From the sequence record DRR378314_799: a DNA stretch of 20,000 nucleotides. One strand, given 5' to 3'. Of this stretch, positions 1-16,490 are shown in pieces. The notes beneath the pieces are model-generated. The model ran no database searches. It was given only the letters and a program-made list of their open reading frames with translations, and had not been told where the DNA came from. The position numbers were made by a program, and so were the translations under genes. Each line of letters begins with the position of its first letter. Position 1 is the stretch's first letter.

Positions 1-570
1 CTTCACAAAGTTCATGGGTTCATCCGGGTCAATTTGCTCTGGTTCTGACATTAAGGTGTTTTGCTGATCGGTTTTAGCTGTGTGAAAATCCATGCGATTG
101 CGTTGCTGCGAGCTAATTGCACCGGCCTCAAACAACTGATTTGCAAGCTTACTCATGTCGTTAGGTGATATGTCCCGTGGGTTAAAGTCCTCGGTTATAA
201 TTTTTTGAATATCGCCAGGACTAACGGGTTGTTTACCGTCATTGCCGCCTTCAGCCTGGCGGCGCATAGCATCTTCAAAAAGCTGGTCTCGGGCTGACAT
301 TAAGCTTTCAAGTTTGTCCTTTTCTTCTTTGTTCAGGTTTTCTTTACTTTCCAGCTCTTCTATTTTCTGCTCAATTTCTTCGAGCTTTTCGGTATCAACA
401 CCCATGCGGTTCAGCAGCATGCTGCGATAAGCTTTGTCTATTAATGTCTCTTTCTCTTCTTGTGTTTTTTTCTGTTCAGCCTTGTTATCAAGTGGTTCTT
501 GATTCGTTTCACTCTTAGTCATTGCAGGTGTTGACTGGCTTACGCTGTTGATTAATGAGTTAATGTTCAT
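1..570 (-). CDS. Hypothetical protein, partial (runs off the left edge; >=190 aa), charged coiled-coil-like middle region
   Basis: Not in the ORF track because there is no stop in the window. Manual translation from ATG at 570 is open to base 1: MNINSLINSVSQSTPAMTKSETNQEPLDNKAEQKK...AYRSMLLNRMGVDTEKLEEIEQKIEELE...DFNPRDISPNDMSKLANQLFEAGAIS... A GGAGG ribosome-binding site lies just upstream. Confidence 0.85.
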   Translation of the reverse strand, partial: MNINSLINSVSQSTPAMTKSETNQEPLDNKAEQKKTQEEKETLIDKAYRSMLLNRMGVDTEKLEEIEQKIEELESKENLNKEEKDKLESLMSARDQLFEDAMRRQAEGGNDGKQPVSPGDIQKIITEDFNPRDISPNDMSKLANQLFEAGAISSQQRNRMDFHTAKTDQQNTLMSEPEQIDPDEPMNFVK

Positions 571-686: not shown

Positions 687-727
687 TATGGTTGTCAATT
701 GACAACCATAGGGTTGAGCTCTATTCT
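687..727 (+). promoter_or_regulatory. sigma70 promoter with a perfect 24-bp palindromic operator over the -35
   Basis: TTGACA (699-704)-N17-TATTCT (722-727). The palindrome TATGGTTGTCAATTGACAACCATA spans 687-710. Confidence 0.8.
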
Positions 728-761
728 TCTGTTACTGAGATGATTAAAGGAGATGACGACA

Positions 762-1250
762 ATGAATGAATATGACTTTACGTTGAAGTTTGTCATCCCT
801 AAAGACTTGAAAACCGATGATCTTAGCAGCCAGATTTTTGCCGGCGGATGTGATGATGCAATTATTGGCGTGGGAGTTGCGGGTCGATTGGCGTTAAATT
901 TTGTACGTGAATCAAGTAATGCAACAGAGGCAATTCGCTCTGCGTTATCTGATATTCGAAAAGTAATCCCTCAGGCTAAGCTGGTTGAAATAGGTCCGGA
1001 TTTGGTTGGCTTGTCAGACGCTGGCGAGCAACTCAATATGAGCCGGCAATATCTGAGAAAAGTACGGGATCAGGAATTGGAAACGTTTCCTCTACCGGTG
1101 CATGAGGGCAACCCGTCACTTTGGCATTTATGCCACCTGCTTGAATATTTCCGTCAGGAAAAGCTACGCGATATTCCAGAATGTAAAATTGAACTAGCGA
1201 AAGCCGCTATGACACTTAATTACGAACAACAGAAGCAGCGGGTTTATTGA
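762..1250 (+). CDS. DNA-binding protein, antitoxin-like (putative HicB-like N-terminal domain plus AlpA-like HTH)
   Basis: Family motifs EYDFTLKF, GCDDAIIG..GRLALNF.RE, PDLVGLSD..EQLNMSRQYLRK (HTH), FPLPVHEGNPSLWHL. Start placed at ATG 762 because GGAG (749-752) directly abuts ATG 753. Confidence 0.7.
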   Translation: MNEYDFTLKFVIPKDLKTDDLSSQIFAGGCDDAIIGVGVAGRLALNFVRESSNATEAIRSALSDIRKVIPQAKLVEIGPDLVGLSDAGEQLNMSRQYLRKVRDQELETFPLPVHEGNPSLWHLCHLLEYFRQEKLRDIPECKIELAKAAMTLNYEQQKQRVY

Positions 1251-1271
1251 GGTTTTAAAGCCGCCGACCCC

Positions 1272-1595
1272 TCAAGCCTGCTGATAAGGCTTAGCGTGAG
1301 GTTTCAAGCGCTTTACGTTTTCAGCTTCTTGTTCGTATGCCCGGTGGCGTACGTCCCAGATTTCGACGGCGTGCTGAATGTTCAACCAGAACTCCGGGGT
1401 GTTACCCAAAGCGGCAGCTAATTTAATAGCCATAGGTGCGGTCAAGGCTCCTTTGTCATGAACAATTCGGCTGAGCGTGTTTCTGTGTACTCTCATGGCA
1501 TCAGCGAGCTCTTTTATTTCAATGTTCATCGGTTCAAGAAACTCGGTTATTAGCATCTGGCCAACGGATACCGGGCGACGTTTTGTATCTCTCAT
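1272..1595 (-). CDS. higA: HigA-family antitoxin (Xre HTH)
   Basis: RRPVSVGQML..EFLEPM, LADAMRVHRNTLS, TAPMAIKLAAALGNTPEFWLNIQ; closely resembles Vibrio cholerae HigA-1 as recalled. Lies downstream of its toxin. Confidence 0.93.
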   Translation of the reverse strand: MRDTKRRPVSVGQMLITEFLEPMNIEIKELADAMRVHRNTLSRIVHDKGALTAPMAIKLAAALGNTPEFWLNIQHAVEIWDVRHRAYEQEAENVKRLKPHAKPYQQA

Positions 1596-1606
1596 AATTA
1601 TCCTTT

Positions 1607-1900
1607 TTAACTTTGGTAAACGTGTGGATCCAGGTATGTATCTTGGGCGATACCGTCTTCCCAGTGGAAAATAAGTCGATACTGTTTGTTAACCCGGATA
1701 GAACAATACCCCGAAAGTTTTCCTTTTAAATATTCGAAGCGATTACCTGGGGGAACCCTTAAATCTGACTCCTGCGTTGCAGCATCCAAAATTTCGAGCT
1801 TCCTGAAGAGCGCTCCTTTGATGATCTTCGGTATTTTCTTGTGGCTGATATCATCTTCGTAGAATCGTTCTAGCCAATCGTCCCTGAATGTAACGGCCAT
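1607..1900 (-). CDS. higB: HigB toxin (RelE-superfamily mRNA interferase)
   Basis: F.D.WLE.FYEDD, LFRKLEILDAA, DLRVPPGNRFE.L.G.L.G..SIRVNKQYRLIF.W, YLDPH; toxin-first gene order typical of higBA. Confidence 0.93.
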   Translation of the reverse strand: MAVTFRDDWLERFYEDDISHKKIPKIIKGALFRKLEILDAATQESDLRVPPGNRFEYLKGKLSGYCSIRVNKQYRLIFHWEDGIAQDTYLDPHVYQS

Positions 1901-1923
1901 GGTTTACTGATCACTTTGTATTC

Positions 1924-1952
1924 ATTCTATGCACAACAGTGTTGTGCGTCAA
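1924..1952 (-). promoter_or_regulatory. higBA sigma70 promoter with an inverted-repeat operator in the spacer
   Basis: Minus strand TTGACG-N17-TAGAAT. The inverted repeat GCACAACA-G-TGTTGTGC (1931-1947) fills the spacer. Confidence 0.8.
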
Positions 1953-2102
1953 GTTGGTGTATTTATACTAAATTTGAGTTCTTAAACTATCAATTGGTAA
2001 GGCATTGATATAAATGTCTTACATTGGCGGTATTAAAACTGGGCAAACCCGCAAAAATTTGTTTTGCTGTGGTTATAGGAAACCAAAAACGAATGGACTG
2101 AT

Positions 2103-3383
2103 ATGCACCAACGCCGCTCAGGGAAAACCACGACCTTTAATGCCGCTACGCCAGACAGCGATGCCCAGCGCGACAGGGCGCGTATTATTCACTCGTCGGC
2201 GTTTCGTCGCTTGCAGGCAAAAACTCAGGTGCTGGGTGTGGGCGAGAGTGACTTTTACCGCACACGCTTAACGCATTCTATGGAAGTGGCTCAGATTGGT
2301 TCGGGCATTTGTGAGAAGTTAAAGCAAAAGTATGCAGAGAACGACGCTACTTCGACGCATATCCCGTCTTATTTTCAAATTGAGGCCATTTGTCTGGCGC
2401 ATGATATTGGTCACCCGCCGTTCGGGCACGGTGGCGAAGTGGCGCTGAACTACCACATGCACAGCAGCGGTGGTTTTGAAGGTAATGGGCAGACCCTGCG
2501 TATTATCTCAAAGCTGGGTGAGTATTCCGACCACGACGGTTTGGATTTAACTCGTCGCACTTTACTCGGTGTGCTTAAGTATCCGGTGCTGCATAGCGAA
2601 GTTAGTACTCCCTCACTGTCTGATGAAAAGCACTTAAGTGCTTTTAAACCGCCCAAATCTATTCATGACGACGAACAGGATGTGCTGGACTGGATACTGG
2701 AACCGCTGACTCCCAACGACAAAGCGACCTTTCGCTCCACTAAAATGAAAGAGGGTAAAACCAAAGCACAGTACAAAGCTTTTGATACCTCCATTATGGA
2801 GCTGGCCGACGACATATCGTACGGCGTGCACGATTTGGAAGACTCGCTGGCACTGAACCTGGTAACTGAAAAGCAGTGGCGCGAAGACGTACTCGCTGTT
2901 TTGGACGACAACAGCGTTATTATGCTGGAAGAGCGGTTTTATACCGAGGCGCTTTTTTCAGGCCAAAGCCGTGCGCGTAAGCACGCAATTAGTAAGCTTG
3001 TCGGGCATTTTGTGGATGCCATTGAAGTGAAAGAGCAGAACCGGTTTGAATCGCTCTGGTTAGATCTGCAGGCAAGCCTTCCTGAGAACATTGAACATAC
3101 TCTGCAAGTGTTGAAGGACTTTGTGTTTAAGCATGTTATTCGCAGCTCTTCGGTGCAGGTTCTGGAGTACAAAGGCCAGATGATGATCTTGAAGCTGTTT
3201 CAGGTACTGAGCGAAAACCCAGAGCAACTGCTGCCTGGCTCTACTTTGCAAAAATATAAAAACGCAGAAAACCCCAAGCGTGTTATTTGTGACTATATTT
3301 CGGGCATGACGGACAACTACGCGACCAAGCTTTACAGTAAACTGTTCAGCCCAGACACCGGCTCTGTATTTGATAAGGTTTAG
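2103..3383 (+). CDS. dgt: Deoxyguanosinetriphosphate triphosphohydrolase (HD-domain dGTPase), short type that includes anti-phage dGTPases
   Basis: RDRARIIHSSAFRRLQAKTQV, RTRLTHSMEVAQ, LAHDIGHPPFGHGGE, FEGNGQTLR, ADDISYGVHDLED, CDYISGMTD.YA; metal ligands appear intact. Confidence 0.92.
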   Translation: MHQRRSGKTTTFNAATPDSDAQRDRARIIHSSAFRRLQAKTQVLGVGESDFYRTRLTHSMEVAQIGSGICEKLKQKYAENDATSTHIPSYFQIEAICLAHDIGHPPFGHGGEVALNYHMHSSGGFEGNGQTLRIISKLGEYSDHDGLDLTRRTLLGVLKYPVLHSEVSTPSLSDEKHLSAFKPPKSIHDDEQDVLDWILEPLTPNDKATFRSTKMKEGKTKAQYKAFDTSIMELADDISYGVHDLEDSLALNLVTEKQWREDVLAVLDDNSVIMLEERFYTEALFSGQSRARKHAISKLVGHFVDAIEVKEQNRFESLWLDLQASLPENIEHTLQVLKDFVFKHVIRSSSVQVLEYKGQMMILKLFQVLSENPEQLLPGSTLQKYKNAENPKRVICDYISGMTDNYATKLYSKLFSPDTGSVFDKV

Positions 3384-3385
3384 TT

Positions 3386-4093
3386 ATGAATGTTTACATG
3401 ATGCTGTTACTGGCCTGGGGGGCGGGGCTTTCCGCCTTTTTAGGTGGTGTATTTGCCCGTTACGAAGGCATGCCCAAAACTACCGGAAAGCGTGAGTTTA
3501 TTCACGGCATTACCGCCTTTGGCGGTGGCATTTTAGTGTCCGCAGTCGCTTTTGCTCTGGTTCCTGAGGGAATGAAAGAATTGAATGCCTGGTCTCTCAC
3601 TTTGTTGTTTGCCAGCGGCGGTATTGTTTTTTGCTGCATTGATGCGTGGTTGGCTAAACAGGGTGGAAATGCCTCTCAATTTCTTGCCATGCTAATGGAC
3701 TTTGTTCCCGAGGCTTTATCGTTAGGTGCCGTTTTTGCCATCAGTCCAAATACAGGGCTGTTATTGGCCGTTTTCATTGGCGCGCAAAACTTTCCCGAGG
3801 GCTTTAATGCCTACCGTGAACTGAAGGCGGCGGGGCTCACCAAAAAAATGGCACTGGGCGGGCTATTTGCAGCCTCATTCTTCGGCCCTCTTGCAGCAAT
3901 TTCGGGCTATTTATGGTTGAGCGACACCCCGGCAATTACGGCTATGATCATGAGTTTCGCCGCTGGCGGTATCCTTTACTTAGTATTTCAGGATATTGCC
4001 CCACAAGCGAGAATGCGACGTCACTGGACGCCCTCACTCGGAGCTGTATTGGGCTTTATTATTGGCATGCTGAGTAAGCAGTTGCTGGGTTAG
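3386..4093 (+). CDS. ZIP (GufA/ZupT-like) family divalent metal transporter
   Basis: About 8 hydrophobic segments; AFGGGIL..AVAF.LVPEG, MDFVPEAL, QNFPEGF, FAAGGILY.V..DIAP. Starts 2 nt after the dgt stop. Confidence 0.85.
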   Translation: MNVYMMLLLAWGAGLSAFLGGVFARYEGMPKTTGKREFIHGITAFGGGILVSAVAFALVPEGMKELNAWSLTLLFASGGIVFCCIDAWLAKQGGNASQFLAMLMDFVPEALSLGAVFAISPNTGLLLAVFIGAQNFPEGFNAYRELKAAGLTKKMALGGLFAASFFGPLAAISGYLWLSDTPAITAMIMSFAAGGILYLVFQDIAPQARMRRHWTPSLGAVLGFIIGMLSKQLLG

Positions 4094-4695
4094 TCGTCCT
4101 GCTTGTAAGCAATAACATAAAAACTAACGGCTCCGTCGCTTAAAATTTTAGTTCCATAATGTTGCCCATAAAACTGAAGTTCATTGTTAGCTTTCATAAA
4201 GGAACGAAACTGTTCTTGGCTTGTAAATATACCCGTAACAACACACATCGTCAGCCGACATTCAGATTCTGCGTGTAACAGCCCTTTCTGGTTAGAAAGC
4301 AGGCTGGATAGCTTTTTTTCGCGGCTGATTCCCCACGAACTGATGCCATTTTGCGGTGCGAATCTCTCAACGCCACGGAGGTAATTACTGTTATCGGTAA
4401 AGTGCTTATTCTGTCCCTCAAAAAAACTCGGGTTTTCTGCAATAAGTTGCTCGCGTTTGAGCTCGTCTTCATTTGAAGTGTCGCCTGCAGGCTGAGGTGA
4501 CTCAACTGACTCGGCAGCTTGTTCGGCACTGGTCTCACTGTTGGATGTATCCAGTTGCGCGCTGGTTTTTGCTTTTGGAGCATCGGCATTTGCTGGTGCG
4601 GTTGGTGTTTTTAAGCCGTCCGTTGACTGGCGGCCAAGCCAAAAAGAGAAAGCAGCAACCAAAACAAATGCGCATGCTAATAAAATCCTTTTCAT
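4090..4695 (-). CDS. Hypothetical exported or membrane-anchored protein
   Basis: MKRILLACAFVLVAAFSFWLG N-terminal hydrophobic segment, an A/P/S/E-rich linker and a C-terminal domain with ECRLTMC. GAGG RBS before ATG 4695 (the ORF track starts at 4716). Confidence 0.7.
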   Translation of the reverse strand: MKRILLACAFVLVAAFSFWLGRQSTDGLKTPTAPANADAPKAKTSAQLDTSNSETSAEQAAESVESPQPAGDTSNEDELKREQLIAENPSFFEGQNKHFTDNSNYLRGVERFAPQNGISSWGISREKKLSSLLSNQKGLLHAESECRLTMCVVTGIFTSQEQFRSFMKANNELQFYGQHYGTKILSDGAVSFYVIAYKQDD

Positions 4696-4715
4696 AGTTA
4701 CCTCTAAAGTATTCA

Positions 4716-4787
4716 TGGACTAAATTTGGTCTTTATTTGGACTTCTGTTGGTTTTCACCTATAATTTTAAAAGTAACCTAGTCTAGG
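4716..4787 (+). promoter_or_regulatory. Promoter and candidate operator array of the Phd/ParE TA operon
   Basis: TATAAT at 4760-4765 with TTGGAC/TGGACT at 4737-4743. TGGWCT hexamers at 4716, 4727 and 4738 (11-bp period). Palindrome CCTAG-T-CTAGG at 4777-4787. Confidence 0.6.
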
Positions 4788-4797
4788 GGGTCAGACA

Positions 4798-5070
4798 ATG
4801 TATCAAACTAAACAGTCACGCATCACAACGGTTTCAGCATTTAAGAAAGAACTTTCCTCAATGAATGTTGAGGAGCCTGTTGTTGTTACCCAAAATGGGG
4901 AGCCACTCTATGTGGTTCAGGATCCAGCCCAGTATGAAATGCAGCAAGAACAAATGGCTTTTATGAAGCTAATGTCATTCGCGGAAAAAGATTTAAAAGC
5001 TGGACGTACCTTATCTTCAAATCAGCTTCGTTCTAATCTTGAGGAAGTGCTGACGAATGACGGCAATTAG
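4798..5070 (+). CDS. Phd/YefM-family antitoxin (PfiA-like)
   Basis: ITTVSAFKK...EPVVVTQNGEPLYVV...MAFMKLMSFAEKDLKAGR; overlaps the downstream toxin by 14 nt. Confidence 0.88.
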   Translation: MYQTKQSRITTVSAFKKELSSMNVEEPVVVTQNGEPLYVVQDPAQYEMQQEQMAFMKLMSFAEKDLKAGRTLSSNQLRSNLEEVLTNDGN

Positions 5071-5398
5071 CATTGAATATACCGAAACATTTGAACGTCA
5101 AGTTAGTGCATATAGCCAATATCTGGCGAGGTATATTGGTCAATCACAGGCAAGGGGGCTGATATTTAATTTTATAGATATGCTTGAGCAGAGGGTAATA
5201 CGCTATCCCGAGAGCAGCCCGCTTTGTGAAGAAGCGGCCAGCTTAGGTTTTACGAATTATCGTGACTTTATTCTCCCTGATCAGCAATTGAGAGCCATTT
5301 ATCGACTTGAAGAAGATAAAGCATATATGATGCTTTTTCTAAAATCCCGCCAGAGTATCAGAGAAGCGCTCCTGCAATATTGTTTGCGGGTTGAGTAA
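5057..5398 (+). CDS. RelE/ParE-family toxin (PfiT-like)
   Basis: IEYTETF, YPESSP..EEAASLGFTNYR, LRAIYR, LFLKSRQSIREALLQYCL; 113 aa and translationally coupled to a Phd antitoxin. Confidence 0.82.
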   Translation: MTAISIEYTETFERQVSAYSQYLARYIGQSQARGLIFNFIDMLEQRVIRYPESSPLCEEAASLGFTNYRDFILPDQQLRAIYRLEEDKAYMMLFLKSRQSIREALLQYCLRVE

Positions 5399-5421
5399 TT
5401 ACCTGAGAATAGATATTTCGG

Positions 5422-5871
5422 TCAACGATAGGCCGGAGTTGGCTCATTGATTGATGATTGCGGTGGTTGTTGCAGCCAGTTTTCGGTAATAAGCCCGGGA
5501 ACTCGCTCAAATTCTCCGGTGTTATTGGTAACAACCGTGAGTCCATGGCATCTGGCATGGCCAGCTATCATCTGATCATAGGGGCCAATAGGTGTGCCCT
5601 GCTGTTTCAGTTTGTGACGAATAAGTGCTGTGTGATAAGTCGCGTCAGTATCGTAATTTAGTATTTTTAAACGAGCCAAAAAGCTGTCGAGTTTGTCGGC
5701 ATTAGTTGTACGTTGCTGCGAGTTTTCGACACCATATTGAAGCTCCATTACGGTTACTGAACTGATGCAGAGCTCGCGCGAGTGTTCATCAAAAATAGGA
5801 GCTAAATATGCTGGTCTATTCTTCATGATATAGATGCAAATATTCGTATCGAGCATATAGCGCAAGTTCAT
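5422..5871 (-). CDS. vapC: VapC PIN-domain toxin (enteric tRNA-fMet endonuclease type) with a C-terminal extension
   Basis: YMLDTNICIY, CISSVTVMELQYG, GTPIGPYDQMIAGHA, VVTNNTGEFERVPGL..ENW; strongly resembles Salmonella/Shigella VapC. Confidence 0.95.
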   Translation of the reverse strand: MNLRYMLDTNICIYIMKNRPAYLAPIFDEHSRELCISSVTVMELQYGVENSQQRTTNADKLDSFLARLKILNYDTDATYHTALIRHKLKQQGTPIGPYDQMIAGHARCHGLTVVTNNTGEFERVPGLITENWLQQPPQSSINEPTPAYR

Positions 5872-6098
5872 AGCGAGTCGCGCTCCTGCTCCTCAGGCTG
5901 CTCGCGTTCAACCATAAAGTCATCGCTTGCGGGTTCGCCGTTAAACCAGGATGCCCAGCTTGTTTTGGCCGGGGTAATAATTCGGCTTTCACCAACCACT
6001 AAAACTTCCACCTCTTTAACGTCTTCGGAAAAGGCAACGTCTTTGGGTAATCGGACAGCTTGAGTTTTGTTACTTTTAAATAAGCTTGTTTTAGTCAT
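5868..6098 (-). CDS. vapB: VapB antitoxin (AbrB/SpoVT fold)
   Basis: LFKSNKTQAVRLPKDVAF..DVKEVEV..VGESRIITPA..SWASWF....SDDFM.EREQP..QER; ATGA overlap with vapC. Confidence 0.95.
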   Translation of the reverse strand: MTKTSLFKSNKTQAVRLPKDVAFSEDVKEVEVLVVGESRIITPAKTSWASWFNGEPASDDFMVEREQPEEQERDSL

Positions 6099-6108
6099 TG
6101 GTCTTCCT

Positions 6109-6159
6109 GTATATCCAAAATGGATATACCTATTTTAGTCTAAATTTTAATCTTGTCAA
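6109..6159 (-). promoter_or_regulatory. vapBC promoter and vapO-like operator
   Basis: Minus strand TTGACA (6159-6154)-N16-TAAAAT (6137-6132). Inverted repeat GTATATCCA-AAA-TGGATATAC (6109-6129) over the predicted start site. Confidence 0.8.
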
Positions 6160-6224
6160 AACCGTGATCACCCCCGCCTGTTTGAGTTATAATTCGCACA
6201 AATTTCAGCCGCGAAGAGAGAGTT

Positions 6225-6881
6225 ATGGCTAGAAACAAGAAAGAATCCATTGTTTTGGAAACTCCGACGGGGTCCGATCACGTGCTGCTGCATTCGTGCT
6301 GCGCGCCATGTTCAGGCGAGGTTATGGAGCGCATGGCGGAAGCTGGCATTAAATTTACCATTTTCTTCTATAACCCGAATATTCATCCGGAAAAAGAGTA
6401 TTTGCTGCGTAAAGAAGAGAACATCCGCTTTGCTGAGAAGCTGGGTGTGGACTTTATTGACTGCGATTACGACTCTAAAAACTGGTTCGAACGGGTTAAA
6501 GGCCTGGAGTGGGAGCCGGAGCGCGGTGAACGTTGCACCGAATGTTTTGATATGCGCTTTGAGCGTACAGCGTTGTATGCCCATGAAAACGGCTTTGACA
6601 CCATTACCAGTTGCTTAGGTATTTCACGCTGGAAAAACATGGATCAGATAAACGACTGTGGTCAGCGCGCGGTAGCGCCATACCCTGGCCTGCACTACTG
6701 GACCTTTAACTGGCGTAAACAAGGCGGCGCGGCGCGTATGGTGGAAATTGCCAAACGTGAGCGTTTTTATCAGCAAGAATACTGCGGCTGCGTTTATTCA
6801 TTACGAGACATGAACCGCTGGCGCCTGAAAAATGGCCGTGACCGTATAGAGATAGGCGTTCAGTACTACACCAACGAATAA
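6225..6881 (+). CDS. queH: Epoxyqueuosine reductase QueH (DUF208)
   Basis: [42 protein letters not shown] Fe-S motifs. TATAAT at 6188-6193 upstream. Confidence 0.95.
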
Positions 6882-6955: not shown

Positions 6956-9115
6956 TTAAAACTGGTAACTTAGCGACGCTGAGTAATTTGCTGGCGCGCC
7001 GTAATAACCTTGCGCCCAATATAAACTATTGAGGTACTTTTCATCGGTTACGTTATAGCCGTTAACTCGTACTGATAAAGCATCCGTAATTTGCCAACTA
7101 GCCATTAAGCCTAACCGTCCGTATGCGGGCTGGCGAGTTATAATCGTCTCTCCTGCATTGCTATACATAGATCCGACAGTACCCTGTACTCGACTCGTTT
7201 CGTCCTGCCACTGATAAGTCGCGCCCAATTTTAACTGTGGTAGTTGTGGGAATTGATAAGTCAATGACGTCCGGAATAGTTTTTCCGCTGTATAGTTCTC
7301 AACTAACTCATCGCCGTCGACATCAAATACTGTTGCGGACATTTGACCTTGTAAGCCTGGGATAATTTCTCCGGCCAGTTCCATCTCCAGCCCTTCGCTG
7401 CTGATACCGTCGGCAGCGCGATAAACCGGTTCGGGTAGTCCTGTTTCCGGATTAATGGCATCCCCGTCACCGACAGCTAAGTTTTCTTGATCGATATGGA
7501 AGTAAGAAAGACTCAGTAGCGCGCGTCGATTAAAGAGATCTGCTTTTAATCCGATTTCAGAGTTCTTACCGGTCAACGGTTCCAGGCGTTCAAAGTTCTG
7601 GTCGCGCTCAGTTTGAGCAAGGAATGTCTCAGTGTAAGATGCGTAGGTCGTTAAGGCATCATTGATAGCATAGGTCACCCCAACATAAGGAATGAATTTT
7701 GCGTCATCGCGCGATTGATCGACACCATAACCGACGCCCTCGGTTGTGAAGTCGTTGTAGCGTCCTCCGAGTAGAACTTTTAAATTATCGCTAAGTGCTA
7801 ATCGAGTTTGTGCGTAAACGGCTTTTTGTGTGTTATCAACAACACTTCCAGCCCGCGAATCGGTGAATTCAGGTAAAGGAGTATCTCCATCCCAGTCTCT
7901 AAGAGACGGCATAGCGGGGAAACCATTTCCGGTATGGTAGTCATAAAGGGAATAATCGACATAGTCTAGACGCGAGTAGTTAGCACCCACGACGACCTCA
8001 TGTAATTGACCCCAGGCTGCAAATGAACCGCTAGCGTACAGGTCGAGGGTATCTTGTTTATTATCCAGATCGTATTCGCTGCCATAGCCAATAAGTCCCA
8101 GTCCTGTTTCAGGATCGAGACCGACTTCTGAGTCAGCTAAATAAGTATAAAATAATAAGCTGTCCTCGTCAGTACGCACTCTGTTGTAGGCTGCGCGTAA
8201 TGTCCAGCTGTCGGATAGTGCAGTCTCAATATCGACAAAACTGCGGCTCTCGCTAACTTCCCACTCTGACCAATCCGCTGCGACATTGGTTGATTCGTCG
8301 AAGTCAGTTGGGGTGCCGTCGCCATAATATAGAGTTAAGGCGCCCCACATATTGCCATCGGTGTGACTTTTGTGTTCGCTGTGCCCCACCGTTAGAAGGG
8401 TATTGTCAGACAATGCGAAGTCAGCAACGCCATAGAACAATTTAGTATCGTTTTCATAACGATCTAAGTAGGACTCACCGCTATCAGTTGCACCGACAAA
8501 GCGAGCTCGGATGCGATCATTGATTTTGCCTGATGCGTCTACTTCCAACCGCTTGTTATCCCAAGAGCCAAGACTACCTTCAAGACGAACCTGAGTGTCT
8601 GATGTCGGGCGTTTGCGAACCATATTGACTGTGGCTGCGGGGCTACCGACACCAGTCATAATACCGTTGGCACCGTGAATTACCTCTACACGCTCATACA
8701 ATGCTGTATCAACTCGTCCATGCGTATTGCTATTGATCAGCGGAAGACCAAGCCCGTCAATTTGAAAGTTGTTGAGTTCAAATCCTCTTGAGGTGTAATA
8801 AACGCGGTCAGTTTCTACGTTTTCTACATTAACTGCAGCTGCGCTTTCCAGCACAGAGTTAATGTCATTGAGACCAAAGTCTTCGATTTGTTGACGTGTT
8901 ATGACGGTAACCGCTTGTGGAGTTTCTTTAATGGTAAGACCTAGCTTTGTTGCACCATCTGCATCAGAGCTTCGGTATCCATCTTGTTCCTGCCCGGTGA
9001 CTTTCAAACGCTCTATGACTTTATCTGTTTGTTGTGGCTCTTCGGCTGCAGCCTTTACGGGTAAGCCGATAGCGGCCAGAATGCTAGCCGCCAGAACAGT
9101 CTTTTTAATCTTCAT
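6956..9115 (-). CDS. TonB-dependent siderophore receptor, FhuE/FpvA/PupA family, no N-terminal signalling domain
   Basis: Signal peptide, TonB box-like ERLKVTG, ATKLGLTIKETPQAVTVITRQQIED, YERVEVIHGANG.MTG.GSPAATVNMVRKRP, N.TDEKY, C-terminal Phe. Confidence 0.93.
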   Translation of the reverse strand: MKIKKTVLAASILAAIGLPVKAAAEEPQQTDKVIERLKVTGQEQDGYRSSDADGATKLGLTIKETPQAVTVITRQQIEDFGLNDINSVLESAAAVNVENVETDRVYYTSRGFELNNFQIDGLGLPLINSNTHGRVDTALYERVEVIHGANGIMTGVGSPAATVNMVRKRPTSDTQVRLEGSLGSWDNKRLEVDASGKINDRIRARFVGATDSGESYLDRYENDTKLFYGVADFALSDNTLLTVGHSEHKSHTDGNMWGALTLYYGDGTPTDFDESTNVAADWSEWEVSESRSFVDIETALSDSWTLRAAYNRVRTDEDSLLFYTYLADSEVGLDPETGLGLIGYGSEYDLDNKQDTLDLYASGSFAAWGQLHEVVVGANYSRLDYVDYSLYDYHTGNGFPAMPSLRDWDGDTPLPEFTDSRAGSVVDNTQKAVYAQTRLALSDNLKVLLGGRYNDFTTEGVGYGVDQSRDDAKFIPYVGVTYAINDALTTYASYTETFLAQTERDQNFERLEPLTGKNSEIGLKADLFNRRALLSLSYFHIDQENLAVGDGDAINPETGLPEPVYRAADGISSEGLEMELAGEIIPGLQGQMSATVFDVDGDELVENYTAEKLFRTSLTYQFPQLPQLKLGATYQWQDETSRVQGTVGSMYSNAGETIITRQPAYGRLGLMASWQITDALSVRVNGYNVTDEKYLNSLYWAQGYYGAPANYSASLSYQF

Positions 9116-9158
9116 TATTCCCCTCGAATCTTAGATTTGGTCTAAATCGAGGTGGATC

Positions 9159-9181
9159 CTAAATGAAAACGATTCGTGTTT
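9159..9181. promoter_or_regulatory. Possible degenerate Fur box upstream of the first receptor
   Basis: AAATGAAAACGATTCGTGT partially matches AATGATAATCATTATCATT; weak, supported mainly by context. Confidence 0.3.
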
Positions 9182-9187
9182 AAAGTT

Positions 9188-9658
9188 TTATTTCACCCAA
9201 GTCTCAGGAAGTTCCCAATGAGCTTGATGAACGTCACCATTCCAGGTTTGCAGAGTGACCCAAACGCGTTGCTGCGGTTCAAGCTTTTGTGGTGCTATGG
9301 CATGAACATGCTGCAATAACTCACTGCCATGTAAAATGCCGACATCATCTTGTTGCAGTTCTTCAATAGCAATTGGCTCCTCGCCAATGCTCACGTAACC
9401 CTGACGAATATCACTGACTTTCCCTTCGTTAACGTAGGCTGAAAAGTCTTTCACCCAGTCTTCGTGGTGCGCGTAAGGCGCTTCATTATTTGCTGGTTGT
9501 AAGGCTACTTTAAACGGGCCTACGGCTTTTTCATCCCAGACGGGAGGCAGCTCTGGTAGCTGCAGTTGCTGGTACAGAAAGTAAAAGGGCAGAATAAGAA
9601 TTAAGCCGCTGAGCTTAAATTTATTGCGGTTCCAGAAGGTATTTTTACGGCGCGCCAT
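9188..9658 (-). CDS. FpvH-like single-pass membrane protein (partner of the ferri-siderophore reductase)
   Basis: FW..NKFKL..LILILP, VGPF, NEAP, KDF, WVTLQTWNGDVHQA match recalled Pseudomonas FpvH motifs (FW.KWRFHL..LLL.IP, VGPW, NEAP, WITMEGWDGSMHQA). TAATG coupling to the upstream PepSY gene. Confidence 0.7.
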   Translation of the reverse strand: MARRKNTFWNRNKFKLSGLILILPFYFLYQQLQLPELPPVWDEKAVGPFKVALQPANNEAPYAHHEDWVKDFSAYVNEGKVSDIRQGYVSIGEEPIAIEELQQDDVGILHGSELLQHVHAIAPQKLEPQQRVWVTLQTWNGDVHQAHWELPETWVK

Positions 9659-10803
9659 TAATGAGCTCCTTCATTCTGTAACGACTCTTGCAGCGGTGTG
9701 CGTTTGGCTTTTGCCGCTTTCACCGTGCGAGAACCCCAAATCAAAAATCCGGTAATGGACATAGCCGATAAAATAAGACCAAAAATAAACCAAATGGCTT
9801 TAGTCCAGATACCGCCAATGGTGCCGTAGTGCAGAGGGTCAACAATATGCTGAATGGTCTGCAGGGTATTCATGTTGTCGGGCGAAACGGCTCGCGCTAT
9901 TTCACCGTTCCAGGGGTTAATATCCAGCCTGTAGGAGTACTGATCGTAGAAGATAAAGTCGCCACCGCCCATAATTTTGAACATGTCACGGTTATGCTCA
10001 GGCATCATAATGAAGCTGGGGCGGATATCGGGGAAGCGCTGCTCCGCTATAAGCAAGGCGTTTTCAAAAGACACCGGAGCTTGTGCTTTTTCTCCCATAG
10101 GAATGTCAGATACTTCAACCAGCGGAGCGTGTTCTTCAATATCAATGTCTGCGTGCCAGAGCACTTGCTGAGTAAAATACCAGAGGCCAGTTAAACTCAT
10201 AACAATGAGGAACCAGATGGACCAGGCGCCGCCGTGCTTATGTAAGTCGGTTAAAAGGGTTTTTTTGCCTTGCTTGGCACGAATTTTAGGTTGCGAGTAG
10301 GCACGCCAGAACCTTTTATAAATGACCAGGCCGGTAACCAGAGCGCCAATCATGACAAAGGACATGCCCGAAACCAGGTAATAACCCACGCTGTAGCCGT
10401 CTTGCCAGGGGAATAGCAACCAGCTATGCAGTGAGCGCATAAAGTTAATAAAAGTAATGCCCTGATTAACTTCCTGAATTTCGCCGGTGTACTGGTTTAC
10501 ATAGGCAATACCCATCGGGATGTTTTCATCGGAGAAAACGACGGCGTTAATAATATAAGGCTCAAAAGTCATTACCGTCGTAACGTTGGCCGTTGGAAAC
10601 TGATCTTTGACGGTAGCAACTAACTCCGAGATAGGCTGAGCGGGTAAATTGTCTGGGTTAACCGCGCGCGCATTTTCGTTGAACAACCAAGTTAGCTCGT
10701 GACTGAATACGGCGATGGTACCGGTAATGCAAATAAAGCAAAACAGGATCCATATTGGCAGCGAGCACCACCCATGTAATTTAAACCATTGCCTTTGCGT
10801 CAT
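9658..10803 (-). CDS. PepSY-associated TM helix protein, FpvG-like ferric-siderophore reductase
   Basis: WFKLHGWCSLPIW...TGTIAV, YVNQYTGEI, RSLHSWL, LVTGLVIYKRFW, DLHK..G.WSIWF, PLHYGTIGG..TKAIWFIFG; four conserved His residues. Confidence 0.88.
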   Translation of the reverse strand: MTQRQWFKLHGWCSLPIWILFCFICITGTIAVFSHELTWLFNENARAVNPDNLPAQPISELVATVKDQFPTANVTTVMTFEPYIINAVVFSDENIPMGIAYVNQYTGEIQEVNQGITFINFMRSLHSWLLFPWQDGYSVGYYLVSGMSFVMIGALVTGLVIYKRFWRAYSQPKIRAKQGKKTLLTDLHKHGGAWSIWFLIVMSLTGLWYFTQQVLWHADIDIEEHAPLVEVSDIPMGEKAQAPVSFENALLIAEQRFPDIRPSFIMMPEHNRDMFKIMGGGDFIFYDQYSYRLDINPWNGEIARAVSPDNMNTLQTIQHIVDPLHYGTIGGIWTKAIWFIFGLILSAMSITGFLIWGSRTVKAAKAKRTPLQESLQNEGAH

Positions 10804-10835
10804 TCCAACTCCCCCGAGAAATTTTCCGAAATGAT

Positions 10836-10892
10836 ATTGTAAATACGAACAATTATCAAATACAATGTGTCGATAACAATTCTCATTTACAA
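10836..10892. promoter_or_regulatory. Overlapping divergent promoters with Fur box(es)
   Basis: Plus strand TTGTAA(10837)-N18-TACAAT(10861); minus strand TTGTAT(10865)-N18-TACAAT(10841). Fur 7-1-7-like CGATAAC-A-ATTCTCA at 10871-10885, and a weaker TACGAAC-A-ATTATCA at 10844-10858. Confidence 0.7.
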
Positions 10893-10913
10893 AGTTTGGT
10901 CGGGAGACAATTC

Positions 10914-13061
10914 ATGAAGGCATTTGCCAGAAATTTCATAGCCACAGCGGTAGCATCCGCGCTGTTAAGCTCCGCTGCTGTAGCCGCACAAAACGAAGCT
11001 TCTGCTGAAGAAAACAAAGAAAAAGCAGGAACGCAGGAAAAGATTTTTGAACACATTAAAGTTACCGGTAGTTCTTTAGATCAGGCAACAACAGCTACTG
11101 GGTTACCGTTAACTCTGCGCCAGACACCCCAATCTATTTCTATTATTGACCGCACCTTTATAGACAGCTTCTCACTCGATACGGTTGCCGATGTGATGCA
11201 GTTTGCTCCGGGTATTCAGGCGCAACAGGCCGAAACTGACCGATTTTTCTTCCGTGCACGTGGCCGCGATGTGACCAACTTCCAATTTGACGGTGTGCCT
11301 ATTGCATACAACAGCTTCTTTAGTGAAGCATTGGCGGACTCCGTTATTTTTGAACGCGTTGAAATTGTGCGTGGCGCGACAGGCTTGTTAACCGGTGCAG
11401 GAGAACCTTCTGCTGCCATTAACCTTATTCGTAAACGACCTAAAGCGGAAGATGGTGGTTATGCGAGCCTGGGGATTGGCTCCTGGAGTAACTACAGAGT
11501 AGAAGCTGACCACTCTCAAACTTTGTCTGAGGATGGAAACGTAAAAGGACGTGTTGCGCTTGCCTATGAAGAAGGTGACAGTTACGTCAATTTGTCCGAA
11601 AAAGAAAACGCGCAAATTTACGCTGTTGTAACTGCTGATTTGACGACTCAAACACGTTTAACCATGGGCGCTGATTATAGCGAGCGTAACCCCAAAGGAA
11701 GTATGTGGGGTGCATTACCTCTGTTTTATGATGACGGTACGCAGGCTGATGATTTGCCAGTTAGTACGACAACAGCATCACCTTGGAATAGATGGGATAG
11801 AGAGAGTACCAGCGTATTCGTTCAGCTAGAGCATGCTTTTGATAACGGCTGGGATATTCAACTGGATGTTGAACGTCGTGAAGATGATATGGACGGGTAT
11901 CTTTTGTATTTCTCCGGTTTTCCAAACAAAGATACCGGACAAGGCTTAGGAACATCGCCGAATCATTATGTTGCTGAACGCGAGCAAACTTCCTATCGGT
12001 TTTTGGCGTCAGGTCCTTTCGAGCTATTTGGTCGTGAGCATCAATTAACCGCAGGTGCTCTGAGTTCTGAACAAAATGTTGATTCCGTATCTTATAGCAG
12101 TGCTGATGCCATAGACGTGCCTAGTTTGTTTGACTGGGGGAACGGGGTCGATCCCATTAACTTTAGCGACACTCCAGCTTATGGAACGTATGAATCATAT
12201 AAGCAAAAAGGGGTATACGCTGCAGCTCAATTGAGTTTAACGGATGACTTAACTGCTATTTTAGGTAATAGAATTACAACCTATGACACTTTTGTAGAGT
12301 CACCCTGGTCGCCAAGCGATTATAAAAACTCAGGCGTTAACACCCCTTATTTTGGGCTGGTTTATGATGTCACAGATGTCATTTCAACTTATGCCAGCTA
12401 CACGGAAATTTTTAAACCTCAAAGCGCGCGAAATGCAGAAAATGAACTCATCGGCCCGGTGGAAGGTTCAAACGCAGAATTGGGCGTTAAAGGCGACTTC
12501 TTTAATGAAGCTTTAACAGCCAGTGTTGCCGTCTTTAAAGTGAAAGAAGATAACCTAGCGATTAATGACCCCGATAACCCGGATTTCCTACCAGGCACTA
12601 CTATCCAGCCGTCTATCGGAGTTGATGGTGCCGAAAGTGAAGGTTATGAGTTTGAGTTAAATGGTAAGCCAACCGATTCACTGAATATTTTCTTCAGTTA
12701 TACGCACAACGAGTCGGAAGATCGTGATGGTTCAGACTATGCGCCTTATTTACCCGAAGACATGGTGAAAGCCAGCGTACTTTATACTGCCACAGATGCA
12801 TTGAAAGTCGGTGTGAACGCTAACTGGCAGAGCAAAATATCGTCTAACCCAAATATCGGTCCAAATGGCGAAACCTTTACTCAGGACAGCTACACCGTCG
12901 TGAATGCCATGGCCAACTATAAGCTAAGCCAAAACTGGGATCTGAGCTTTAACGTCAACAACCTGTTCGATAAAAAGTACTATTCCAGCATCGACTTTTA
13001 TAATCAGGGCTTTTTCGGTGCTCCGCGTAATGTGGAACTGAGTGTTAAATACGCTTGGTAA
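10914..13061 (+). CDS. TonB-dependent siderophore receptor, FhuE/FpvA family (paralogue of 6956-9115)
   Basis: Signal peptide, EHIKVTG, TATGLPLTLRQTPQSISII, FERVEIVRGATGLLTGAGEPSAAINLIRKRP, NNLFDKKYY, C-terminal Trp. GGGAG RBS supports ATG 10914. Confidence 0.93.
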   Translation: MKAFARNFIATAVASALLSSAAVAAQNEASAEENKEKAGTQEKIFEHIKVTGSSLDQATTATGLPLTLRQTPQSISIIDRTFIDSFSLDTVADVMQFAPGIQAQQAETDRFFFRARGRDVTNFQFDGVPIAYNSFFSEALADSVIFERVEIVRGATGLLTGAGEPSAAINLIRKRPKAEDGGYASLGIGSWSNYRVEADHSQTLSEDGNVKGRVALAYEEGDSYVNLSEKENAQIYAVVTADLTTQTRLTMGADYSERNPKGSMWGALPLFYDDGTQADDLPVSTTTASPWNRWDRESTSVFVQLEHAFDNGWDIQLDVERREDDMDGYLLYFSGFPNKDTGQGLGTSPNHYVAEREQTSYRFLASGPFELFGREHQLTAGALSSEQNVDSVSYSSADAIDVPSLFDWGNGVDPINFSDTPAYGTYESYKQKGVYAAAQLSLTDDLTAILGNRITTYDTFVESPWSPSDYKNSGVNTPYFGLVYDVTDVISTYASYTEIFKPQSARNAENELIGPVEGSNAELGVKGDFFNEALTASVAVFKVKEDNLAINDPDNPDFLPGTTIQPSIGVDGAESEGYEFELNGKPTDSLNIFFSYTHNESEDRDGSDYAPYLPEDMVKASVLYTATDALKVGVNANWQSKISSNPNIGPNGETFTQDSYTVVNAMANYKLSQNWDLSFNVNNLFDKKYYSSIDFYNQGFFGAPRNVELSVKYAW

Positions 13062-13084
13062 ACACATAAAACTTGACCTGGAAG

Positions 13085-13111
13085 AGGCTGTGCTTTTGCA
13101 CGGCCTTTTTT
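13085..13111 (+). terminator. Rho-independent terminator
   Basis: AGGCTGTGC-TTTT-GCACGGCCT followed by a T-run. Confidence 0.9.
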
Positions 13112-13241
13112 GTGCCTAAATTTTGACACTGTTATTTTGTAACATTACTTGTCTGATTATTGACAAGTTTCGGTAAGACTATGACTATAGCTTTTATTAG
13201 AGGTTATTGTTCCCTCCCTAACAATTAACAGAAGAGACACT

Positions 13242-15407
13242 ATGAAAAAGTTATTGATTGCTTTGTCTGTAGTCAGCTGTTTTGCTGCAGCCGATGAAGG
13301 TATGTGGATGCCTAAACAGTTGCCGGAAATTGCCGATAAGCTGAAGGCGGCAGGTCTGACTATTGACCCTAATGATATTTCTAAATTAACTGAGTTTCCC
13401 GCTGCTGCCATTGTCAGCCTGGGTGGTTGTTCGGCCTCGTTTGTGTCACCAGACGGGTTAGTAGCAACCAACCATCATTGCGCTTACAACAGCATTGCTC
13501 ATAACTCGACGCCAGAGAACGACTTGCTCGCTAATGGCTTTTTAGCCAAGGATTTAGATGCAGAAGTACCGGCGGCACCGGGCAGCCGCATTTTTGTGAC
13601 TAAAGCGGTCGATGAAGTCACTAATAAGGTGATTGATGCCAAGGTAACCGAGTTAACCGGCAAAGCGCGTCTGGACGCGATAGAAGATAACCAGAAAGCT
13701 TTGGTAGCAGAGTGTGAAGAGGACGAAGGGCATCGTTGCACGGTAGCTGCATACTACGGCAGCCTCGAGTATTACCTTATTAAGCAACTGGAAATTAAGG
13801 ATGTTCGCTTAGTCCATGCACCGGCAAGTGGTGTGGGCAAATTTGGCGGCGACACCGATAACTGGATGTGGCCACGTCATACTGGCGACTACAGCTTTTT
13901 ACGCGCCTATGTCAGCCCGGAAGGTGAGTCAGCGGATTACAGCGAAGACAACGTACCTTATAAACCGGATTACCACTTAACGATAGCCAGTGAAGGCCTG
14001 GAAGAAGGTGATTTTGTTATGGCTCTGGGGTATCCGGGCCGCACGAACCGTCACCGCCTGCCGTCTGAAGTAAAAGAAACCTTTGAATGGAGCTATCCTA
14101 AAACAGTTGAACAGTTTCAGGATTCACTGGACATTATTGCCCGGGAAACAGCCGACGATAAAGATGCGGAGCTCAAGTACGCCAGCCGTGTTGCTGGCCT
14201 GAACAATTACCTGAAAAACCGTCAGGGTATGCTGGACAGCTTTGCGAACAGCGACTTGCTGGAACGTAAGCAACAGGAACATAAAGAGCTGACTGAGTGG
14301 GTAAACGGCGACCGTACGAAAAAAGCGTTGTATGCCGATGGGCTTAATACAATTGATACGTTGCTACAGCAGCGCCATAAGAAAAGTCGTGCTGATTACC
14401 AGCTAAATAATGCAACGCCGCGCTTGCTTTCTGTTGCCCGCGCTGTTCACCGTTTGGCTCAGGAAGGCACCAAGCCTGATGCAGAGCGTAAAGCCGGTTA
14501 TCAGGAACGTGATGTTCCACGCTTCCAGTCATACCTGGCCGGTATGGACAGAAATTTTGACGCTAAGGTTGAGAAGGCATTAGATCTGCACAATCTGAGC
14601 AGCTACATGGCACAGCCTAAGTCAGAGCGCGATGCCGCTTTCGATAAAGCTATGGGTCTGCGTGATGGCATGAGCAACGACGAGTTAAGCGCGTTAATTG
14701 ATGGTTGGTATGAAAGCACTAGCTTACTTGACCGAGATAACCGTATGGCGTTACTGGAGTTTGACCCGGAACAGTTTGAGCAAAGCGAAGATCCGTTCGT
14801 TAAAGCCGCTGTCGCACTTTATCCTTCCGATTTAGAAGATGAGAAAAAGAGCGAAGAACTTTCCGGTAAAATTCAGCAAGCCTACGCTGACTACATGCGC
14901 GCAAAAATTGCCTTTATGCAAAGTAAAGGAGAGGCGGTGTACCCTGATGCGAACAGCACGCTGAGAATTACCTATGGTAACGTTGCAGGCCGCGACCATG
15001 GTACCGAAGACGGTAATGCCTGGGCACCTTTTACTACCTTGCGTGGTGTAACAGAAAAAGCCACTGGTGAAGGGGAGTTTAATGCGCCGGAAGAACAACT
15101 GAAGGCGATTGAAGCGGGTGACTTCGGTCCTTATGAAAAAGCGGATTTAAATTCTGTACCTGTGAACTACCTTGCCACTTTGGATATTACCGGTGGTAAT
15201 TCAGGTTCTGCGGTTTTAAACCATAAAGGCGAGTTTGTCGGCCTGGCTTTTGACGGCACGCTGGATTCCATTATTTCCGATTGGGATTTCAACCTGGAGA
15301 ACACCCGTTCTATTCAGGTGGATACTCGCTACATGCTGTGGCAGATGGAATACGTTGACCATGCGGATAATCTGCTGAAAGAGCTGGGTGTTAGTACAAG
15401 CCAGTAG
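13242..15407 (+). CDS. S46-family dipeptidyl peptidase (DPP7/DAP BII type), exported
   Basis: Signal peptide then DEGMWMP; TNHHC (His), DNWMWPRHTGD (Asp), DITGGNSGS (Ser). GLAFDG has Gly at the S1-determining site, not the Arg of DPP11. Confidence 0.95.
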   Translation: MKKLLIALSVVSCFAAADEGMWMPKQLPEIADKLKAAGLTIDPNDISKLTEFPAAAIVSLGGCSASFVSPDGLVATNHHCAYNSIAHNSTPENDLLANGFLAKDLDAEVPAAPGSRIFVTKAVDEVTNKVIDAKVTELTGKARLDAIEDNQKALVAECEEDEGHRCTVAAYYGSLEYYLIKQLEIKDVRLVHAPASGVGKFGGDTDNWMWPRHTGDYSFLRAYVSPEGESADYSEDNVPYKPDYHLTIASEGLEEGDFVMALGYPGRTNRHRLPSEVKETFEWSYPKTVEQFQDSLDIIARETADDKDAELKYASRVAGLNNYLKNRQGMLDSFANSDLLERKQQEHKELTEWVNGDRTKKALYADGLNTIDTLLQQRHKKSRADYQLNNATPRLLSVARAVHRLAQEGTKPDAERKAGYQERDVPRFQSYLAGMDRNFDAKVEKALDLHNLSSYMAQPKSERDAAFDKAMGLRDGMSNDELSALIDGWYESTSLLDRDNRMALLEFDPEQFEQSEDPFVKAAVALYPSDLEDEKKSEELSGKIQQAYADYMRAKIAFMQSKGEAVYPDANSTLRITYGNVAGRDHGTEDGNAWAPFTTLRGVTEKATGEGEFNAPEEQLKAIEAGDFGPYEKADLNSVPVNYLATLDITGGNSGSAVLNHKGEFVGLAFDGTLDSIISDWDFNLENTRSIQVDTRYMLWQMEYVDHADNLLKELGVSTSQ

Positions 15408-16404: not shown

Positions 16405-16490
16405 CTACGTACGTTTAAGTGATTTGATAAGGCATAATCATTTAGTTCCTCCTAAGCTTTGTTTCTTTGAAAAGTACGGAAACTAAAAGC

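Follow-up and report, generated by a model that had tools for sequence, protein, structure and literature searches.

A toxin–antitoxin-rich interval around a dGTPase gene in Idiomarina, probably one version of a variable hotspot

We have analysed a 20,000-nucleotide (nt) stretch of an Idiomarina chromosome from sequence record DRR378314_799, hereafter the window, and within it the interval 687-6159, where toxin–antitoxin (TA) genes surround a gene for a dGTPase. Within about 5.5 kb, this interval holds an orphan antitoxin-like gene (PDC-M06B), the pair higBA, the dGTPase gene and a gene for a ZIP-family transporter, a gene for an exported protein of 208 amino acids (aa) that we call unk208, a phd gene paired with a PfiT-like toxin gene, and the pair vapBC (Table 1); a first-pass annotation, made from the sequence alone, had listed the same content. 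All named families in the window score above their curated cutoffs (Pfam, NCBIfam), and the left gene at the window's edge matches no family with E <0.01. We read the interval as one version of an Idiomarina variable hotspot, in which small self-contained cassettes are gained, replaced, and lost in the slots of a conserved backbone, and we give this reading a probability of about 0.7.

The lack of visible mobility genes and tRNAs that the same annotation had reported is confirmed by our scans. No integrase or transposase domain was found in the 23 window open reading frames (ORFs) scanned, no tRNA, tmRNA, or Rfam family occurs in the 20-kb window, and a repeat search, by which alone attC sites were judged, returned no repeat common to the cassette borders. 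Judged by the missing integrase domain in these 23 ORFs and the missing shared border repeat, the interval is not an integron cassette array.

Table 1. Genes and promoter-like sites in the window, with the matches on which their names rest (bit scores are followed by the curated cutoff where one is given)
Feature	Position	Strand	Evidence and remarks
Left backbone gene	1-570	-	Glu/Lys-rich hypothetical protein; first 190 codons in window, 222 aa in G001
M06B promoter-like site	699..727	+	palindrome 687-710 overlaps -35
Orphan PDC-M06B	753-1250	+	165 aa; PADLOC E 9.4e-58; no Pfam match
higA	1272-1595	-	TIGR02607, 107.3 bits vs 47.7
higB	1607-1900	-	PF05015, 134.4 bits vs 27
higBA promoter-like site	1952..1924	-	palindrome 1931-1947 in spacer
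dGTPase	2103-3383	+	NF041026, 543.7 vs 400; PADLOC dGTPase 8.8e-151; HD domain + HD_assoc
Short ZIP-family metal transporter	3386-4093	+	PF02535, 43.2 vs 35.1
Exported protein unk208, 208 aa	4090-4716	-	no family match
phd promoter-like site	4738..4765	+	promoter scan
phd	4798-5070	+	PF02604, 33.5 vs 29.8; TIGR01552, 26.3 vs 20.8
PfiT-like toxin, 113 aa	5057-5398	+	PDB 9w3a, E 8e-12; no Pfam match
vapC	5422-5871	-	NF010285, 163.3 vs 143
vapB	5868-6098	-	NF040493, 113.4 vs 60
vapBC promoter-like site	6159..6132	-	11/12 consensus; palindrome 6109-6129 between -10 and vapB
queH, right backbone gene	6225-6881	+	PF02677, 223.9 bits
DUF4160	16467-16727	+	Pfam, 72.6; paired with DUF2442
DUF2442	16708-16947	+	Pfam, 72.2; paired with DUF4160

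The interval was compared with the syntenic regions of 25 species representatives of the same genus (designated by G and a number), onto which the window proteins were mapped by tblastn. The nearest genome, G001, matches the window at 95-97%. The locus has a backbone of esterase, left gene, dGTPase, ZIP, and queH; the left gene is at the locus in 15 genomes, with 53-99% aa identity, and QueH retains 82-100% aa identity in the fetched loci of 22. The cassettes between these genes come and go. M06B is whole at the locus in six genomes and a remnant in one; the higB and higA pair is found in three (G001, G025, and G015 only), with higA alone in three; the phd and PfiT-like toxin pair occurs in three (G024, G025, G015); and vapBC occurs in five (G001, G024, G007, G010, G005), with a decayed copy in G016. 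None of the 25 genomes carries the full module set of the window. The changes fall at recurrent intergenic breakpoints at the module borders (681/682, 2039, 3385/3386, 4104-4106, 5399-5422, 6160-6171, and 6945), and where slot A is empty, in G018, G011, and G013, the left flank meets the leader of the dGTPase gene within 5-20 nt. The 56 representative ORFs scanned from the relatives' loci likewise contain no integrase or transposase domain. Comparison across related genomes had been suggested as the check on the annotation's claim of a hotspot free of mobility genes, and the outcome is clear: the interval is not invariant core, and its content differs among the 25 genomes at sharp, recurring breakpoints.

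The relatives fill the same slots with genes of several kinds, including recognised defence genes. These comprise a type IV restriction enzyme (mREase_IV, PADLOC 3.8e-160), an HNH nuclease, a type II methyltransferase, and complete PDC-M06A+B pairs. In G020, a C5-methyltransferase (DrmMII-like) and Vsr occupy the place that the dGTPase has in other genomes, and no island dGTPase was found in G020. G005 has an insertion of ~20 kb between M06B and dGTPase (L027:5370-14320 and L028:1-4014), which encodes a 1308-aa IetA-like AAA-AAA-M41 protein, a methyltransferase, an HNH protein, a WYL/WCX regulator, a 602-aa subtilase, and several ORFs of no family. The locus therefore shows what a core-flanked defence or TA hotspot is recognised by, namely variable content between conserved flanks and known defence systems in relatives. 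The slots of other genomes also hold a subtilase of 645-689 aa (11 syntenic loci) or a chemoreceptor (three genomes), and YafN/YafO and Gp49/HTH pairs occur beyond the left gene in relatives. In eight genomes, a protein of 157-163 aa with a cytidine/deoxycytidylate-deaminase fold is encoded between ZIP or dGTPase and queH (L030:7434-7925 and seven further loci); it is weakly TadA-like (38.8 bits against a cutoff of 150) and has no PADLOC match. As side observations, this protein would be a second nucleotide-modifying gene product beside a dGTPase, and the G005 insertion looks like a multi-gene defence island.

The identities of neighbouring genes are mosaic. At a core locus (dgt2-recA, made up of a second dGTPase gene and recA), identity to G001 is 95% for G024, G025, and G007, 83% for G015, 82% for G013 and G018, and 81% for G010 and G023. 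At the hotspot, the left gene is 68-75% identical at the nt level to G024, G025, and G007 but 89-91% identical to G018, G011, and G013. The ZIP gene is 71-73% identical to its counterparts in G024, G025, and G007, whereas the adjacent dGTPase gene is 91-94% identical to theirs (72-73% versus 93-94% for G024 and G025 taken by themselves); G013 carries a dGTPase allele of 66-76% identity beside a left gene of 89%. The TA cassettes are 96-99% identical to those of G024 and G025. Identity of the window to G001 is 100% over positions 1-1900 and 93-97% thereafter; for the first TonB receptor right of queH, 98% identity is reached in G024 alone, with 22-26% elsewhere. In sequence terms, the left part of the window resembles G001 and the right part, joined to it, resembles G024, and the simplest reading of the whole pattern is allelic replacement and cassette exchange by recombination. 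The annotation's notion of a recombination-fed locus is supported by these mosaic identities, which are at odds with the core-locus ranking.

Losses have left scars. G001 lacks 4105-5420, the segment with unk208, phd, and the toxin gene; the last four unk208 codons remain, so the deletion occurred in G001. G024 has kept higA, while an internal deletion corresponding to 1602-1868 cuts higB to approximately its first eleven codons. Only residues 1-39 of vapC remain in G016, and M06A is missing with M06B kept in the window, in G001, and in G004.

The window carries three type II TA pairs whose genes are intact by sequence. Both HigBA proteins exceed their curated cutoffs; higB lies ahead of higA on the minus strand with an 11-nt gap and a promoter-like site upstream of it. 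HigBA operons have the toxin gene upstream of the antitoxin gene, and the order here is the same. The pair would be of the ribosome-dependent mRNase type. VapBC consists of a PIN-domain toxin of the tRNA-fMet-specific VapC subfamily, which would act as a tRNA-fMet endonuclease, and an AbrB/MazE-type VapB antitoxin, with vapB upstream of vapC and a 4-nt overlap. The third pair, whose genes overlap by 14 nt, had been annotated as Phd/ParE with gyrase as a possible target. The 113-aa toxin matches no Pfam family even at E <=5, the ParE/RelE model PF05016 included, and is assigned to the ParE/RelE superfamily because of one match, to PDB 9w3a ("PfiT protein 1") over residues 2-110. PfiT of the Pf4 prophage has been placed in the RelE/ParE superfamily, PF05016, and the passages on PfiT in that source state no gyrase target (PMC13048266). 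The earlier call thus stands at the superfamily level, and a gyrase target does not follow from it. The likeness to PfiT extends over nearly the whole length of the toxin; the antitoxin here is of the Phd/YefM type (PF02604), whereas the passages on PfiA describe a DNA-binding domain of a previously uncharacterised kind (PMC13048266), and the PfiT/PfiA pair sits in a filamentous prophage while the window pair has a chromosomal context.

The fourth TA-like module is represented by one gene. PDC-M06 comprises M06A and M06B genes side by side, and the window contains no M06A (best tblastn E 0.17). In G025, G016, G005, and G009, the start of M06B is overlapped by an 86-aa M06A ORF with a PADLOC PDC-M06A match of ~1e-38; at this place, G025 has 352 bp that include M06A, against 64 bp in the window. 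By this comparison, 753-1250 is an orphan PDC-M06B gene from which the partner gene M06A has been deleted, and the palindrome and the ribosome-binding region of M06B have been kept despite the loss. A call of "orphan antitoxin-like gene" made from the letters of this DNA accords with the PADLOC match and with the predicted binding of M06A described below.

M06B (27 homologue clusters) has an AlphaFold 2 model with pLDDT 92.9, comprising a beta-alpha-beta-beta-alpha-beta N-domain and a C-terminal helix-turn-helix (HTH). Foldseek against the PDB gave only weak ACT-type matches for the N-domain (best E 9.4e-4, TM 0.34) and no informative relative, with no HicB among the matches listed. M06A has at least 389 homologue clusters, and all but one of the source names listed are "hypothetical protein"; in the ESM Atlas, too, it meets only clusters of that name. 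It carries an invariant His/Cys cluster and matches no family below E 0.001; FAD_binding_4, its sole match at E <=5 (E 0.0077), was taken as chance. Its model is moderate (pLDDT 71.3), with the order alpha-beta-beta-beta-alpha. Three HicA chains stand among the best results of a structural search (Z 4.1-4.6, root-mean-square deviation 2.9-3.6 over 57-60 residues), a likeness within noise, given the Foldseek E of 1.1 and an unrelated transaminase in first place at Z 4.9. We treat a HicA-like fold of M06A as a lead from modelling.

A complex of the window M06B with the M06A of G025 is predicted as well. It scores 0.85 against 0.00 for the best control, a mark reached by 51 of 78 solved complexes and, among 108 mismatched pairs, by 2. 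At least 97% of contacts are shared between runs, and the pLDDT of the partner is at least 81. The predicted interface involves M06B residues 12-51, including an invariant G-C-D-D-A stretch. Solved HicAB complexes exist, so some memory effect is possible in this prediction; against that caveat, no HicB stands among the matches listed for the M06B domain. We read PDC-M06 as a TA-like pair with M06B as the putative antitoxin.

A fuller proposal, which we regard as tentative, is that PDC-M06 is an uncharacterised type II TA family. M06A would be a Cys/His-rich toxin with a HicA-like double-stranded RNA-binding domain fold, and M06B an antitoxin with an ACT/ferredoxin-like toxin-binding domain and an HTH. 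In the window, the toxin gene would have been cleanly excised, with the operator, the promoter, and the predicted toxin-binding surface kept; the orphan M06B could then serve as an anti-addiction (immunity) factor against incoming M06 modules or as a regulator of the adjacent dGTPase. HicAB is the working analogy. As in HicAB, M06A is small (~86 aa, with its predicted alpha-beta-beta-beta-alpha order), and its gene lies upstream of and overlaps that of a larger HTH-bearing partner to which it is predicted to bind. The differences are that neither M06 protein has a Pfam HicA or HicB match, that M06A has the invariant Cys/His cluster, and that the N-domain of M06B leans weakly to the ACT type. 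Our literature search found no mention of PDC-M06, and a single-protein scan for related loci returned the G025 contig and one weak planctomycete piece only. The M06 pair is the one possibly new component of the hotspot, and a cheap candidate for a new TA family.

Each TA module had also been credited with a promoter and a candidate operator. The promoter scan gave 12 promoter-like sites in the window against 8.5 +/- 3.0 in shuffles, that is, no overall enrichment; the four top-scoring sites sit just upstream of vapB, M06B, phd, and higB. Three of the four have palindromes, and none stands out upstream of phd. The claim is therefore sustained at the consensus level for four promoter-like sites and three palindromes, and not for an operator at phd. 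At that level, the TA operons are probably autoregulated. A near-identical copy of the palindrome at 687-710 is found upstream of M06A in G025, and 687-727 may hold the operator and promoter that once served the M06AB operon. On the plus strand, the scan gave no promoter-like site ahead of the dGTPase gene in window 1901-2102, and only 2039-2102 of its upstream region is conserved with genomes that have no higBA and M06 cassettes. In G016, G004, and G009, M06B and the dGTPase gene share a strand, with M06B 83 nt upstream, so that transcription from the M06 promoter could read through into the dGTPase gene in these genomes.

The island dGTPase contains PF01966 and PF13286, exceeds the cutoffs of NF041026 and of PADLOC with its HD region present, and so belongs to the anti-phage dGTPase family as these models define it. 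It aligns with PDB 9p8w at 371 bits over residues 20-425; 9p8w is the dGTPase of Shewanella putrefaciens CN-32 (SpdGTPase), an enzyme already shown to inhibit phage (PMC12265719, citing Tal et al. 2022). A second dGTPase gene, 45% identical to the island copy and sharing its HD-region residues in a pairwise alignment, lies beside recA and rssA (L043:1485-2807 in G001). It is next to recA in 24 of the 25 genomes, the exception being G021, which is 80% complete. A protein-level search of the five genomes in which no island copy was found, each at least 98% complete, returned only the recA-linked copy and a distant Dgt-like gene. As an accessory paralogue in a variable region, the island dGTPase plausibly fits a defence role. 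Like SpdGTPase, it is a single-gene HD-domain dGTP triphosphohydrolase of the PRK05318/NF041026 family, and it lies among variable and defence genes; it differs in having the 45%-identical core paralogue, in being known here from its sequence, and in being followed 2 nt downstream by the ZIP gene. A third, Dgt-like gene of ~500 aa was seen in several genomes.

For the ZIP and exported-protein genes, an anti-phage role finds no support. Although ZIP starts so close behind the dGTPase gene, a functional unit of the two was set aside, given that their alleles are discordant and that ZIP occurs apart from the island dGTPase in G014, G017, G019, and G022; ZIP is at the locus in 12 of 25 genomes, and we treat it as a backbone gene. 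Unk208 matches no Pfam, NCBIfam, or PADLOC family. A large protein search returned five homologue clusters, of which the three with a source name are all Idiomarina, and the ESM Atlas gave 0.83-0.85 to unnamed clusters, which is uninformative. Its hydrophobic N-terminus reads as a signal or membrane anchor, and Met 8 is probably where the protein truly starts. Its Pro/Ala/Ser/Glu-rich low-complexity insert of ~37 aa is also present in G024 and absent from the 163-aa relatives, and the conserved C-terminal part has two cysteines; one relative (P0028) diverges and is cut short after approximately residue 134. Unk208 is present in 3 of the 25 genomes (G024, G025, G007) and appears confined to Idiomarina by these searches. 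The suggestion that unannotated members of the cluster are candidate new defence genes gains no support from the exported protein, which is genus-restricted with no PADLOC match.

These results lead us to the following picture of the hotspot. We infer that incoming DNA of related strains uses the conserved backbone genes as homologous flanks for recombination, whereby modules would be swapped without integrases, transposases, or att sites. Autoregulation of each TA operon, through a promoter and palindrome of its own, is probable. Addiction and hitch-hiking in a permissive site are the most likely reasons for the persistence of the TA modules, and some of these may also abort phage infection. 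The island dGTPase is an additional paralogue in a family of which a member has validated anti-phage activity, and it would most likely lower dGTP during infection.

A different account would see a tolerant site, without a role in defence, in which selfish TA modules build up and decay and which ordinary chromosomal genes, those for the dGTPase, ZIP, and the exported protein, happen to frame. We consider it unlikely, though it has support, and a number of our observations weigh against the hotspot reading. Toxin genes have repeatedly been lost with the antitoxin kept, in three families (M06A, higB, and vapC), which suggests decaying passengers. HigBA, the phd/toxin pair, and VapBC yield no PADLOC match at E <1e-4 and no defence evidence, and the anti-phage reading is unsupported for them; PADLOC matches at this level are confined, within the window, to the dGTPase and the incomplete PDC-M06, and ZIP and unk208 show no defence signal. 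In 20 of the 25 genomes, the island dGTPase sits at one and the same position. The recA-linked paralogue scores 621.9 bits with NF003701 and 573.5 with NF041026, above the island copy, and 363.7 bits to 9p8w; because this core gene scores as high or higher, the family label does not by itself show a defence role, and a housekeeping or redundant role for the island copy is possible. GC content is 43-49% across the interval, like the rest of the window. The survey of relatives has its own bounds, in that their loci comprise 212 ORFs in 116 clusters, of which 56 were domain-scanned through one representative each, the other 60 being mostly flanks of distant loci and very short ORFs. Set against the selfish account are the restriction, methylase, Vsr, IetA-like, and WYL genes in the relatives' slots; the methyltransferase and Vsr at the dGTPase place in G020, which is the replacement pattern of a defence hotspot; and the island dGTPase being missing from genomes that retain the recA-linked copy. 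The annotation's idea of layered defence comes out divided: its hotspot part is borne out, while the toxin loss fits selfish TA turnover at least as well. Similarly, its casting of the dGTPase as a defence gene gains from the accessory nature of the gene and its place among variable and defence genes, and loses from a label that is not diagnostic and from the fixed position.

The cluster could also be what is left of a mobile element that once integrated here (a degraded genomic island, an integron cassette array, or a prophage, for instance), with its mobility genes lost or outside the window. Plasmids do carry distant relatives of higBA, vapBC, and the dGTPase (101 records, of which all except two are 60-80% identical, with query coverage of at most 9% among the 15 matches listed), a dGTPase relative lies on one E. 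coli phage, and the YafN/YafO pair beyond the left edge in G001 indicates that the island extends past the window. We nevertheless judge such an origin very improbable, considering the absence of mobility genes, tRNA, and repeated border elements reported above for the window and of integrase and transposase domains for the scanned ORFs of relatives, the interleaving of backbone genes with cassettes that each have their own breakpoints, the lack of a GC anomaly, and the direct joining of backbone genes where slot A is empty.

The variable-hotspot reading has close precedents in the Pseudomonas aeruginosa loci cDHS1 and cDHS2, where no detectable mobile gene was present in 29% and 47% of sites, respectively, and where TA genes are mentioned as modules that may serve in defence or addiction (Johnson et al. 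2023, PMC10250203). As described in the passages on those loci, they and the Idiomarina locus share a variable region between core genes, with content that differs among close relatives, and a locus similarity discordant with genome similarity. The Idiomarina locus differs in being much smaller (5.5 kb here, up to ~24 kb in G005), in having no flanking tRNA or tmRNA in the window, in backbone genes that interleave with several slots and do not bound a single one, and in a window version dominated by type II TA pairs; our survey, in turn, covers 25 species representatives and not hundreds of isolates. The locus is an ordinary new example of a core-flanked defence hotspot, small and TA-rich.

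Several uses follow from this. Idiomarina, a little-studied marine genus with small genomes, gains a defined hotspot with known flanking genes, which may be used for harvesting new defence and TA cassettes and for studying module exchange without mobility genes. The scars of repeated toxin-gene loss put TA decay on record as it proceeds. For annotation practice, the "anti-phage dGTPase" models of NCBIfam and PADLOC fail to tell defence from housekeeping copies, and since they also pick up the recA-linked paralogue, seen in 24 of the 25 genomes, automated defence calls overcount in this family.

Neighbouring sites vary as well. Right of queH, 6956-15407 is also variable and holds two TonB-dependent receptors, a PepSY_TM protein, a 156-aa unknown protein, and an S46 peptidase; in G003, G006, G008, G009, and G016, the genes straight after queH are those for DDAH and a cold-shock protein and rlmA. 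The further DUF4160/DUF2442 module, placed some 10 kb from the interval by the first-pass annotation, is present, with rlmA on one side and a FemAB-like gene on the other, and forms a small variable site of its own: these two flanking genes are adjacent with no insert in G006, and G009 has a DUF2442 homologue (69%) only. Scored against the DhiT/DhiA-type model NF048015, the pair reaches 24.3 bits, below the cutoff of 100. On the other side, a YafN/YafO pair directly follows the left gene in G001 (L013:7938-8626), G011, G003, and G005. Given the 100% identity of the window to G001 over 1-1900, its genome probably has this pair too, and the TA cluster is probably larger than the window shows.

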